A DNA stretch of 41,587 nt from a virus. Lineage: Duplodnaviria; Heunggongvirae; Uroviricota; Caudoviricetes. The stretch spans positions 1 through 41,587 of the IMG/VR virus record IMGVR_UViG_2541047938_000008; one strand, written 5' to 3'. The translations under genes and the position numbers were made by a program. The notes beneath the pieces were generated by a model. That model searched no databases, was not told the origin of the DNA, and was given only the letters and a program-made list of their open reading frames with translations. Below, in pieces: positions 26,334 through 36,394 of this stretch. Each line of letters begins with the position of its first letter. Position 1 is the stretch's first letter.

Positions 26334-26806
26334 ACCTCAATCTCTCTGACCGTTCCGCCAGCTTCTTTGAATTTTGCAATCAGGCCGTCAACCTTATGCT
26401 CGAACTGACCGTAACCAGCCCCCGGCAGTGAAGCCCAGATATTACTGCAACGGTCGATTGCCTGACGGATATCACCGCGATCAATCATCGGCAAAGCGCC
26501 ACGTTCCTTAATCTGTTGCAGTGCCACAGCGTCCTGGCTTTTCGGAGAGAAGTCTTTCAGGCCAAGCTGCTTACGATAGGCATCCCACCAACGGGAAAGA
26601 AGCTGGTAACGTCCGGCTGCTGTTGATTTGAGTTTTGGGTTTAGCGTGACAAGTTTGCGAGGGTGATCTGAGTAATCAGTGAATAGCTCTCCGCCTACAA
26701 TGACGTCATAACCATGATTTCTGGTTTTCTGTCGTCCGTTATCAGTTCCCTCTGACCACGCCAGCATATCGAGGAACGCCTTACGTTGATTATTGATTTC
26801 CACCAT
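26330..26806 (-). CDS. R: Endolysin, lambda R-type lytic transglycosylase
   Basis: 158 aa, near-identical to lambda R ([24 protein letters not shown]...). Confidence 0.9.
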
Positions 26807-27113
26807 CTTCTACTCCGGCTTTTTTAGCAGCGAAGCGTTTGATAAGCGAACCAATCGAGTCAGTACCGATGTAGCCGATAAACACGCTCGTTATATAAGC
26901 GAGATTGCTACTTAGTCCGGCGAAGTCGAGAAGGTCACGAATGAACCAGGCGATAATGGCGCACATCGTTGCGTCGATTACTGTTTTTGTAAACGCACCG
27001 CCATTATATCTGCCGCGAAGGTACGCCATTGCAAACGCAAGGATTGCCCCGATGCCTTGTTCCTTTGCCGCGAGAATGGCGGCTAACAGGTCATGTTTTT
27101 CTGGCATCTTCAT
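26790..27113 (-). CDS. S: Holin, lambda S-type
   Basis: 107 aa with dual-start motif MKMPEK and three TM helices. Confidence 0.9.
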
Positions 27114-27236
27114 GTCTTACCCCCAATAAGGGGATTTGCTCTATTTAATTAGGAATAAGGTCGATTACTGATAGAACAAATCCAGGCTACTGTGTTTAGT
27201 AATCAGATTTGTTCGTGACCGATATGCACGGGCAAA

Positions 27237-27268
27237 ACGGCAGGAGGTTGTTAGCGCAGCCTCCTGCC
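27237..27268 (-). terminator. Hairpin with trailing U-tract between the tRNA pair and S
   Basis: 9-bp stem GGCAGGAGG/CCTCCTGCC followed by GUUUUG on the minus strand. Confidence 0.4.
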
Positions 27269-27355
27269 ACCCGCTTTCACGAAGATCATGTGTAGAAGGC
27301 CGCAGCGTAACTATCACTGATGAGTTCAGGATAGCCAGTGGCTACGGCTCAGTTA

Positions 27356-27431
27356 TGGTGCTGGTTAACGGACTTGAACCGCTACCCATTCGCTTACAAG
27401 GCGACTGCTCTACCATTGGAGCTAAACCAGC
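27356..27431 (-). tRNA. tRNA-Thr (anticodon UGU), phage-encoded
   Basis: Hand-folded cloverleaf: 7-bp acceptor stem, D-arm GCTC/GAGC, anticodon loop CTTGTAA, T-arm AGCGG-TTCAAGT-CCGTT, CCA. Confidence 0.6.
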
Positions 27432-27436
27432 ATATT

Positions 27437-27511
27437 TGGCGGGACAGCGTGGACTCGAACCACGATAAGAAGGTTAACAGCCTTCCGTAATGACCTTTAT
27501 ACGACTGACCC
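27437..27511 (-). tRNA. tRNA-Asn (anticodon GUU), phage-encoded
   Basis: Hand-folded cloverleaf: anticodon stem GAAGG/CCTTC, loop CTGTTAA, T-arm CGTGG-TTCGAGT-CCACG, CCA; one U-U mismatch in acceptor stem and 4-nt variable loop. Confidence 0.5.
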
Positions 27512-27512
27512 A

Positions 27513-27575
27513 AATAAAAAATCCCGAAACCGTTATGCAGGCTCTAACTATTACCTGCGAACTGTTTCGGGATTG
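27513..27575 (-). terminator. tR'-like terminator ending the short pR' transcript
   Basis: Long stem AATCCCGAAAC...GTTTCGGGATT followed by UUUUUUAUUU on the minus strand, about 190 nt downstream of pR'. Confidence 0.6.
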
Positions 27576-27714
27576 CATTTTACAGACCTCTCAGCCTGCG
27601 ATGGTTGGAGTTCCAGACGATACGTCGAAGTGACCAACTAGGCGGAATCGGTAGTAAGCGCCGCCTCTTTTTATCTCACTACCACAACGAGCGAATTAAC
27701 CCATCGTTGGGTCA

Positions 27715-27743
27715 AATTTACCCAACTTTATTCAAAAAGTCAA
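27715..27743 (-). promoter_or_regulatory. Late promoter pR' (with qut region downstream)
   Basis: TTGACT-17 nt-TAAATT on the minus strand just downstream of Q, as in lambda pR'. Confidence 0.6.
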
Positions 27744-27785
27744 TATCATGCCGTTAATATGTTGCCATCCGTGGCAATCATGCTG

Positions 27786-28409
27786 CTAACGTGTGACCGC
27801 ATTCAAAATGTTGTCTGCGATTGACTCTTCCTTGTGGCATTGCACCACCAGAGCGTCATACAGCGGCTTAACAGTGCGTGACCAGGTGGGTTGGGTAAGG
27901 TTTGGGATTAGCATCGTTACAGCGCGATATGCGGCGCTTGCTGGCATCCTGGAATAGCCGACGCCTTTGCATCTTCCGCACTCTTTCTCGACAACTCTCC
28001 CCCACTGCTCTGTTTTGGCAATATCAACGGCCCGGCCAGTACCGTGGCAATCTCTGCATCTTGCGCCCGGTGTCGCGGCACTACGGCAATAATCCGCATA
28101 AGCGAATGTTGCGAGCACTTGCAGTACCTTTGCCTTAGTATTTCCTTCGAGCTTTGCCACACCACGGTATTTCCCCGATACCTTGTGTGCAAATTGCATC
28201 AGATAGTTGATAGCCTTTTGTTTGTCGTTCTGGCTGAGTTCGTGCTTACCACAGAATGCAGCCATTCCGAATCCGGCTTGTGATTGCGCCATCCCCATAG
28301 CAGCCATCACATCAGTACCGGAAAGAGAGTCAGAAGCCGTGGCCCGTGGTGAGTCACTCATCATCGGGCTTTTTGGCGAATGAAATTTAGCTACGCTTTC
28401 GAGTCTCAT
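27786..28409 (-). CDS. Q: Late antiterminator Q (lambda type)
   Basis: 207 aa, near-identical to lambda Q including the zinc-binding CRDCHGTG...CGRCKG. Confidence 0.9.
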
Positions 28410-35747: not shown

Positions 35748-36053
35748 ATGGTAACCATTGTCTGGAAAGAATCCAAAGGTACGGCAAAAAGCCGCTACAA
35801 AGCTCGCAGAGCAGAACTTATTGCCGAGCGACGCAGTAATGAAGCACTGGCGCGAAAAATTGCGCTAAAGCTCTCTGGTTGCGTCAAAGCAGACAAAGCA
35901 GCATCACTAGGAATCCTTTGCTGCAAGAAGAAAGAAGAAGTTGTTCGAAAAAATAGAAGTATTTATTACAAAGATTCAAACCCATTAGGAAACAAAATAC
36001 ATGCAGTCCAAAAAATAAAATTGTACAGTAAACTACCGTACGGTGCTTATTGA
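35748..36053 (+). CDS. N-like early antiterminator (P22 gp24 family)
   Basis: Arg-rich motif GTAKSRYKARRAELIAERR near the N-terminus, strong SD AAGGAGA, position after pL/nutL. Confidence 0.6.
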   Translation: MVTIVWKESKGTAKSRYKARRAELIAERRSNEALARKIALKLSGCVKADKAASLGILCCKKKEEVVRKNRSIYYKDSNPLGNKIHAVQKIKLYSKLPYGAY

Positions 36054-36055
36054 GT

Positions 36056-36394
36056 ATGCTTATGGTGAAAAAGACTATTTATGTTAATCCTGACCGCGGA
36101 CAAAACAGAAAAGTATCTGATAGAGGTCTTACATCTCGAGACAGGAGGAGAATAGCGAGATGGGAAAAGAGGATAGCATATGCATTAAAAAACGGTGTAA
36201 CACCTGGATTTAATGCTATAGATAACGGTCCTGAATATAAGATTAATGAAGACCCAATGGATAAAGTTGACAAAGCATTAGCAACACCATTTCCTCGCGA
36301 TGTCGAAAAAATTGAAGATGAAAAATATGAGGATGTAATGCACAGAGTTGTTAATCACGCTCACCAACGAAATCCAAATAAAAAATGGTCATAG
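36056..36394 (+). CDS. Hypothetical protein downstream of N
   Basis: 112-aa ORF followed by an intrinsic terminator; no recognised motif; start uncertain. Confidence 0.4.
   Translation: MLMVKKTIYVNPDRGQNRKVSDRGLTSRDRRRIARWEKRIAYALKNGVTPGFNAIDNGPEYKINEDPMDKVDKALATPFPRDVEKIEDEKYEDVMHRVVNHAHQRNPNKKWS

Follow-up and report, generated by a model that had tools for sequence, protein, structure and literature searches.

How are two tRNA genes expressed when the first of them begins directly at the end of a transcription terminator, and what do they give the phage that carries them? The question arises in a 41,587-nucleotide (nt) stretch of DNA from a tailed phage (IMG/VR record IMGVR_UViG_2541047938_000008; the whole stretch is hereafter called the window), where genes for tRNA-Asn(GUU) and tRNA-Thr(UGU) follow the late terminator tR' of a lambda-type transcription unit. 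We consider it likely that these tRNAs are functional first genes of the late operon: lacking a promoter of their own, they would be made from the late promoter pR' through tR', boosted by the antiterminator Q, and would add decoding capacity, the whole being the tRNA pair of phages 21 and Sf6 set on a lambda-type Q unit. The pair behind a late terminator is an already known, common lambdoid module, and the window holds its lambda-Q recombinant form.

A late promoter, its terminator and two tRNA genes

All parts of the locus, from Q to a second hairpin and the lysis gene S, lie on the minus strand. Those that bear on expression of the tRNAs are, in order of transcription:

27786-28409, minus strand: late-gene antiterminator Q, lambda type; an open reading frame of 207 amino acids, 206/207 identical to lambda Q
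27715-27743, minus strand: late promoter pR' (-35 TTGACT, 17-nt spacer, -10 TAAATT), from a sigma-70 promoter scan
27512-27708, minus strand: late leader, counterpart of lambda 6S RNA, by lambda homology
27520-27574, minus strand: tR' intrinsic terminator hairpin, identical to lambda tR', from folding and lambda alignments
27512-27521, minus strand: T-tract of tR', TTTTTTATTT, ending exactly at G1 of tRNA-Asn (27511)
27437-27511, minus strand: tRNA-Asn(GUU), 75 nt, with encoded CCA and G73; ARAGORN, and Rfam RF00005 at 55.3 bits
27356-27431, minus strand: tRNA-Thr(UGU), 76 nt, with encoded CCA, A73, G1-C72 and C2-G71; ARAGORN, and Rfam RF00005 at 61.5 bits

The transcription unit upstream of the tRNAs is nearly that of lambda. 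The initial annotation had read it as Q, pR' (TTGACT-17-TAAATT), a leader and a tR' hairpin with a U-tract, a layout borne out by the Q identity, the promoter scan and the fold. The -35 and -10 elements of pR' are identical to those of lambda, with two spacer positions changed, and the whole stretch from pR' to tR' aligns with six differences. By homology to lambda, the Q-binding region is assigned to the pR' spacer and the transcription start (+1, at about 27708) to the A of AACGAT, the sigma-dependent pause element, which is conserved. From this +1 to the end of the T-tract the leader measures ~197 nt, slightly more than the ~190 nt first given; we take the +1 position and a 194-nt length to be those of lambda 6S RNA. 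With a folding energy of -26.9 kcal/mol (z = -6.0), the tR' hairpin is more stable than any of 200 shuffled sequences. Present together, then, are a lambda-family Q, a pR' with its Q-binding spacer, AACGAT, and a tR' hairpin with a U-tract, the parts of a lambda-type Q antitermination unit. As the lambda system, which has been studied by experiment, is nearly identical, we infer Q-dependent readthrough of tR' in the window as well.

Both tRNA genes lie on the minus strand within the interval first proposed for them, with ARAGORN calling each and Rfam scoring them at nearly twice the RF00005 gathering score of 29 bits or more. The distance from the tR' U-tract to tRNA-Asn is 0-3 nt, depending on where the end of the U-tract is drawn; the 2 nt originally stated falls within this range, and the T-rich tail itself runs up to G1. 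Five nucleotides (AAUAU) separate tRNA-Asn from tRNA-Thr.

The tRNA genes have neither room nor signal for a promoter of their own. A sigma-70 scan of positions 26800-28400 returned no promoter other than pR' on either strand, and the coding strand of Sf6 likewise showed no promoter-like site besides pR'. We therefore rejected an independent or antisense promoter: within that interval pR' stands alone on the minus strand, and nothing appears on the plus strand. A promoter or start site between tR' and the tRNAs, as described for a tRNA cluster of Shiga toxin (Stx) phages, is likewise missing from the 0-3 nt gap. It follows that the tRNAs must be transcribed from pR' through tR', a reading that the sequence strongly supports, and that Q should then raise tRNA synthesis strongly. 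A paper on phage L (2020) had left open the possibility of a separate tRNA promoter; that question now receives a sequence-based answer, namely no promoter of their own and transcription through tR'. The initial annotation went further and had the tRNAs made only under Q antitermination. Readthrough of tR' is strongly supported, but "only" is not, given a constitutive pR', leaky terminators and data from BTP1 lysogens described below.

At two positions, one in the pR' spacer and one just past the -10 element, the window departs from lambda by substitutions that create a perfect 7-base-pair inverted repeat, GTTGGGT...ACCCAAC, around the -10 element (27706-27726), which a terminator scan flags on the plus strand. 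We had considered these two substitutions as a covarying pair and dropped the idea, as intermediate haplotypes in other loci leave no strict covariation.

Borders and relatives of the tRNA module

The module has sharp borders. When window, lambda and Sf6 are aligned, the left joint falls inside the tR' T-tract: lambda reads GGGATTTTTTAT followed by ATCTGCA, the window GGGATTTTTTAT followed by TTGGGTC (TTGGGTCAG), and Sf6 GGTGGCTTTTTTAT followed by TTGGGTC (TTGGGTCAG). On the right, lambda homology picks up immediately past the CCA of tRNA-Thr, and the 159-nt module stands in place of an unrelated 163-nt lambda spacer (44782-44944). Lambda and the window are nearly identical in Q, pR', leader, tR', second hairpin and S, and differ in that the lambda spacer holds no detectable tRNA or relic of one. 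Judged from this alignment, the window module is the 21/Sf6 tRNA pair joined to a lambda-type Q/pR'/tR' unit by a crossover inside the shared TTTTTTAT tract.

The lengths of the two inserts (163 vs 159 nt) had made a decayed tRNA module one candidate for the lambda spacer. We rejected it: 149 of 2000 shuffles score as high in global alignment, and local alignment is at chance. ARAGORN detects no tRNA in the spacer, and Rfam none at E <= 10.

A wider survey placed the same borders around the module elsewhere. Scanning IMG/VR with the anticodon and T-arm sequence of tRNA-Asn yielded 119 loci, to which the window and five reference phage loci were added, for a total of 125 sequences carrying the pattern. 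In every copy with a readable junction (~120), G1 of tRNA-Asn abuts TTTTTT(T)ATTT after a hairpin, mostly of the phage 21 type (behind four or more different leader sequences) and more rarely of the lambda type. The sequences farther upstream comprise at least three unrelated leader types that have nothing in common but the T-tract. Where 1 kilobase of upstream sequence was available (106 loci), the antiterminator belonged to the Q21/gp23 family in 85 cases and was lambda Q in 19, and terminator type matched Q type in all cases. On the 3' side, differing downstream sequences start directly after the CCA of the last tRNA. A joint in the T-tract and divergence right after the CCA mean that the T-tract and the tRNA 3' end are the exact limits of the module; with unrelated leaders and different Q types in front of it, it carries nothing upstream of the T-tract.

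Within this distribution the window is a minority recombinant form, having lambda Q and lambda tR', not a Q21/gp23-type antiterminator with a 21-type terminator. The lambda-Q form accounts for 19 of the 106 loci and for 5 of 61 phage records (4 phages).

Four copies had been candidates for loss of the terminator. In three of them (L045, L105 and L106) the left arm of the late terminator is replaced by other sequence that still pairs, and the fourth (L050) has a lambda tR' hairpin with an inverted interior. We rejected the description "terminator-less" for all four, as each folds into a strong hairpin before a T-tract abutting the tRNA.

Phage 21 and Sf6 already have this layout, which the initial annotation had presented as noteworthy, among their annotated features, and several papers discuss it; in both, and in SfI, BTP1 and Kapi1 too, a 98-100% identical module lies against the late terminator. 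The Sf6 record (AF547987) lists a phage 21-type Q, pR', qut and tR' (36019-36063), then tRNA-Asn from 36065 and tRNA-Thr, with both tRNAs described as "similar to phage 21". The phage 21 record annotates the late transcription start, a terminator (a feature that cites PMID 1704887) and tRNA-Asn at the next base, which puts the start of the tRNA at +51 in the late transcript as mapped. The SfI paper describes tandem Asn(GUU) and Thr(UGU) genes downstream of Q, with one or both at the same position in Sf6, ST64T, PS3 and p21, and in the epsilon34 paper P22-like prophages are shown with tRNA genes for Asn (GTT) and Thr (TGT). With the pair annotated since the Sf6 record, and in the textbook Q21 system, the locus has limited discovery value. 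One small use is to point out reference records in which the module is present and unannotated: JQ086372/NC_019714 (HK446, in both GenBank and RefSeq), MN340231 (phiv205-1), AY052766 (ST64T) and KT630648 (SEN22).

The module is widespread and strongly conserved. Its identity to phage 21, Sf6, SfI and BTP1 is 99.4% over 166 nt, or 98.9-99.4% over a 181-nt query taking in the junction. It is present in 61 records of the phage collection and in 361 of 5,426 complete E. coli genomes (~7%), in which the Prokaryotic Genome Annotation Pipeline (PGAP) annotates the tRNA-Thr and tRNA-Asn. Its position is conserved across phages of E. coli, Shigella, Salmonella and Klebsiella.

Individual relatives differ from the window in instructive ways. 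The late leader of phage 21 (OL657228, AJ237660) has a 99.4% identical pair behind the same TTTTTTATTT tract, with lysis genes next (S21); unlike the window, with its lambda Q, ~197-nt leader and lambda tR', it combines Q21 with a ~50-nt leader and another terminator hairpin. Closest are Kapi1, HK446, mEp506 and phiv205-1, which join a lambda-type Q to the module and are 98.7-100% identical to the window from the end of Q to the start of S; Kapi1 is also, like the window, a P22-like prophage at argW. Sf6, SfI, BTP1, SPN9CC and other P22-like or lambdoid phages carry the same module at the same position downstream of Q, but mostly with Q21/gp23-type antiterminators. Stx phages of the Sp5/933W type also have tRNA genes just past the late terminator and upstream of the late genes, presumably ileZ, argN and argO, a different set that a literature search did not confirm. 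In these phages transcription from a constitutive pR' is terminated at tR' in lysogens (PMC7547250). In Sp5 the tRNAs are set at some remove from tR', and a start site of their own has been mapped (PMC7547250), whereas the window has neither spacer nor promoter there.

Function of the tRNAs and competing explanations

Do the two genes encode working tRNAs? The initial annotation was correct that tRNA-Asn has an acceptor-stem mismatch (U4.U69) and a short variable loop, of 4 nt vs 5 nt in the host asnT; a further mismatch, U13.U22, lies in the D-stem. Eleven of 13 distinct tRNA-Asn variants have U4.U69, which marks it as a conserved feature and not as decay. Across the survey there are 17 distinct sequences among 128 Asn copies, 107 of which are identical, and 20 among 116 Thr copies. 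In the full-length distinct tRNA-Asn sequences, four pairs changed on both sides, a number matched by 1 of 500 shuffles; here the anticodon arm and T arm were held constant by the search pattern, and few sequences supply the informative variation. For tRNA-Thr the corresponding result is four pairs in six cells (matched by 0-2 of 500 shuffles), and its acceptor stem is paired in 18 of 18 distinct variants. Compensatory changes across the variants fall in acceptor, anticodon and T stems, and both tRNAs appear to be under selection for structure.

The elements expected to specify charging are also in place. For AsnRS, the asparaginyl-tRNA synthetase, we take the identity elements to be G34, U35 and U36 (the GUU anticodon) and the discriminator G73, and tRNA-Asn has both the anticodon and G73. 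For ThrRS, the threonyl counterpart, we assume G1-C72, C2-G71, G35 and U36, with A73 listed alongside as discriminator; all occur in tRNA-Thr, and the ThrRS elements are invariant in the 18 variants. Since stems covary, the expected identity elements are kept and the CCA is encoded, the pair looks functional. The tRNA bodies are far from those of the host: tRNA-Asn is 58% identical to K-12 asnT and tRNA-Thr 66% identical to thrU, with identical anticodon loops (CUGUUAA and CUUGUAA, respectively), and a search of E. coli genomes for host tRNA genes closely related to them detected none at E <= 1e-5.

Codon usage moderately backs a supply role. A comparison of late genes with host genes, proposed at the outset as a check on AAC/AAU and ACA, was made between window genes and 42 K-12 genes by Fisher test. 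Per 1000 codons, ACA occurs 16.3 times in late genes vs 5.4 in the K-12 sample, about threefold (p = 2.5e-12), and the Asn codons AAC and AAU together 53.8 vs 37.7 times, or 1.4-fold (p = 4.5e-7). Early genes have 37.7 Asn codons per 1000, equal to the host sample, so this excess is late-specific. In the coat gene AAC reaches 48.7 per 1000. The SfI paper reports the same ACA bias, and the phage L paper finds that 24 of 25 coat Asn codons are AAC.

Two features downstream of the tRNAs complete the path to the late genes:

27228-27274, minus strand: second hairpin before S (core GGCAGGAGG...CCTCCTGCC at 27268-27239, then GUUUUG), from folding; conserved in lambda and Sf6
26790-27113, minus strand: lambda-type holin/antiholin S, the first late protein-coding gene; an open reading frame of 107 amino acids

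The hairpin before S that the initial annotation had noticed is real as a fold, lying ~90 nt past tRNA-Thr at -28.1 kcal/mol (z = -3.3), and it is present in 55 of the 119 surveyed loci. It was not called by the terminator scan, its T-run being too short; the tail reads GUUUUG in the window and GCUUUG in Sf6, where one pair is also broken. It may be a weak secondary terminator, the role we take it to have among the late terminators of lambda. The homologous position to S is annotated as holin in HK446, mEp506 and Sf6.

These observations fit a simple course of events. RNA polymerase would initiate at pR', which is constitutive (PMC7547250). Without Q, most transcripts would end in the tR' T-tract, 0-3 nt short of tRNA-Asn; with Q loaded at pR', transcription would continue past tR', cover the two tRNAs and the second hairpin, and go on to S-R-Rz and the virion genes. 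RNase P would cut at G1 of each tRNA, also freeing the leader, and trimming of the 5-nt spacer and the 3' trailer would leave each tRNA ending in its encoded CCA. Once mature, the tRNAs would add decoding of AAC/AAU and ACA, and of other ACN codons through the U34 tRNA, during bulk late protein synthesis. We know of no intrinsic terminator that is perfectly efficient; an imperfect tR' combined with the stability of tRNAs would probably sustain a basal tRNA pool in uninduced lysogens.

Several observations weigh against this account. Its tRNA-Asn has two stem mismatches and a fold not clearly above that of shuffled sequence (z = -1.7), and both lambda and P22 do well without these tRNAs. In the late genes AGG, AGA, TCA, ATA and CGA are enriched beyond ACA with no phage tRNA to read them; ACA makes up just as large a share of Thr codons in early genes, and it is scarce in the coat gene. 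Two sets of transcript data also sit uneasily with it. For uninduced cultures of BTP1 lysogens, five genes are reported at TPM (transcripts per million) >100 "excluding the two tRNA genes" (PMC7067206), a wording which implies that the tRNAs are abundant without deliberate induction as well; about 0.2% of the cells induce spontaneously, and standard RNA sequencing measures tRNAs poorly (PMC7067206). RNA sequencing of Kapi1 lysogens gave a clear signal antisense to the tRNAs (window 27356-27511, plus strand; PMC12922286), which could be a library artefact.

The BTP1 data lead to the question of whether the tRNAs work mainly in the lysogen, with leakage from pR' through tR' supplying the host, whose tRNA pool would undergo lysogenic conversion, while the second hairpin would guard the lysis genes and Q would play a secondary part. 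A constitutive pR' (PMC7547250) would allow this, as would the setting apart of the tRNAs from five other features at TPM >100 in uninduced lysogens of BTP1, whose module is 99.4% identical (PMC7067206). The tRNAs are moreover flanked by two hairpins, and natural E. coli prophages often carry the module (361 of 5,426 genomes). We nevertheless hold this to be unlikely: the BTP1 signal is open to spontaneous induction in ~0.2% of cells and to the poor performance of RNA sequencing on tRNAs, the U-tract of the second hairpin is weak (GUUUUG, or GCUUUG plus a broken pair in Sf6), the hairpin occurs in only 55 of 119 loci, and the Asn-codon excess is specific to late genes. Transcription from an unrecognised promoter independent of pR' and Q has a precedent in the Stx2a phage Sp5, where the tRNAs appear to be driven by a primary start upstream of them, between tR' and stx2AB (PMC7547250), and it is the possibility that the phage L authors kept. 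With 0-3 nt between T-tract and G1, however, such a promoter would have to sit in the leader, and tR' would still stand in the way of its transcripts. No sequence is common to the unrelated leader types, the scans give pR' only, and the whole leader of phage 21 is ~50 nt, all of which makes a separate promoter highly improbable.

Two further explanations concern the tRNAs themselves. As replacements or decoys, they could sustain translation once host tRNA-Asn or tRNA-Thr has been cleaved or inactivated, whether by a defence of the host or by the toxin of a competitor, with codon supply playing no part. Colicin E5 cleaves tRNAs with Q34, including tRNA-Asn, and tRNAs of phage T5 are reported to evade anticodon nucleases. 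Bodies strongly diverged from the host (58% and 66%) with the presumed identity elements kept would suit such a role, as would the conserved oddities of tRNA-Asn (U4.U69 in 11 of 13 variants and the 4-nt variable loop). The anticodon loops are the same as the host's, however, so a nuclease acting there would cut the phage tRNAs too; we found no evidence of linked defence or counter-defence, codon usage is a simpler reason, and we judge decoys very unlikely. That the genes are instead decaying passengers or recombination scars without function is suggested by the two stem mismatches and marginal fold of tRNA-Asn, by the aberrant second tRNA of phage L and ST64T, which ARAGORN rejects, and by the absence of the module from lambda and P22. 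Yet 107 of 128 Asn copies are identical, stems are maintained by compensatory changes, the presumed identity elements and CCA are intact, and the position is conserved across phages of E. coli, Shigella, Salmonella and Klebsiella. Functionless passengers are almost certainly the wrong description.

Functional tRNAs made from pR' with the help of Q within the late operon thus remain our preferred reading. An extension of it would make the exact abutment of tRNA-Asn on tR' functional in its own right, not a by-product of recombination, with the module serving as a lysogenic-conversion element and RNA-processing insulator beyond its role as a late codon supplement. We consider this rather unlikely. 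If it were true, an RNase P cut at G1 would detach the leader from every readthrough transcript, yielding a 6S-like leader RNA with or without active Q, and the late mRNA would begin with a processed 5' end. Leakage at tR' would keep a stable pool of phage tRNA in uninduced lysogens, with the second hairpin shielding the lysis genes.

Prophage setting and variant tRNA arrays

The window begins with host DNA. Its left end consists of yfdC (1-933) and argW, a tRNA-Arg(CCU) gene (1009-1083), a flank that a genome search matched in all 5,426 complete E. coli genomes. The att core of Kapi1, Sf6 and HK620 lies at 1069-1084, and an integrase open reading frame follows at 1209-2402. Virion genes are P22-like, with an identity of only ~86% to any isolated phage. 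From its flank and gene content, the window is recognisable as an E. coli prophage, P22-like and integrated at argW, and a single att copy inside the window places the right prophage end beyond it.

The pair is expanded in some relatives. An Asn-Thr-Gly(UCC) array occurs in JLK-2012 and nine IMG/VR loci (expanded arrays include L126 1201-1520, L128 914-1147 and L129 901-1135), Asn-Phe-Thr in Tbat2_3, and Asn-Phe-Thr-Arg(UCU) in Klebsiella phage Mulock. In Mulock, ~85 nt separate tRNA-Asn from the annotated terminator upstream, and the two do not abut.

The second tRNA has itself changed in two ways. In phage L (L125 1285-1356), and likewise in ST64T and PS3, the gene annotated as tRNA-Leu(TAA) is an aberrant tRNA-Thr derivative: it scores 42 bits in Rfam and has a shortened anticodon loop, ARAGORN rejects it, and it keeps the Thr-type acceptor stem and A73. 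In one IMG/VR contig (L094 1358-1433) the tRNA-Thr is an exact chimera, with nt 1-26 from the phage tRNA-Thr and nt 27-76 from K-12 thrU. The crossover falls in the shared GGTAGAGCA, all acceptor pairs form, some of them as wobble pairs, and tRNA-Gly(UCC) comes next. This chimera suggests recombination between phage and host tRNA genes.

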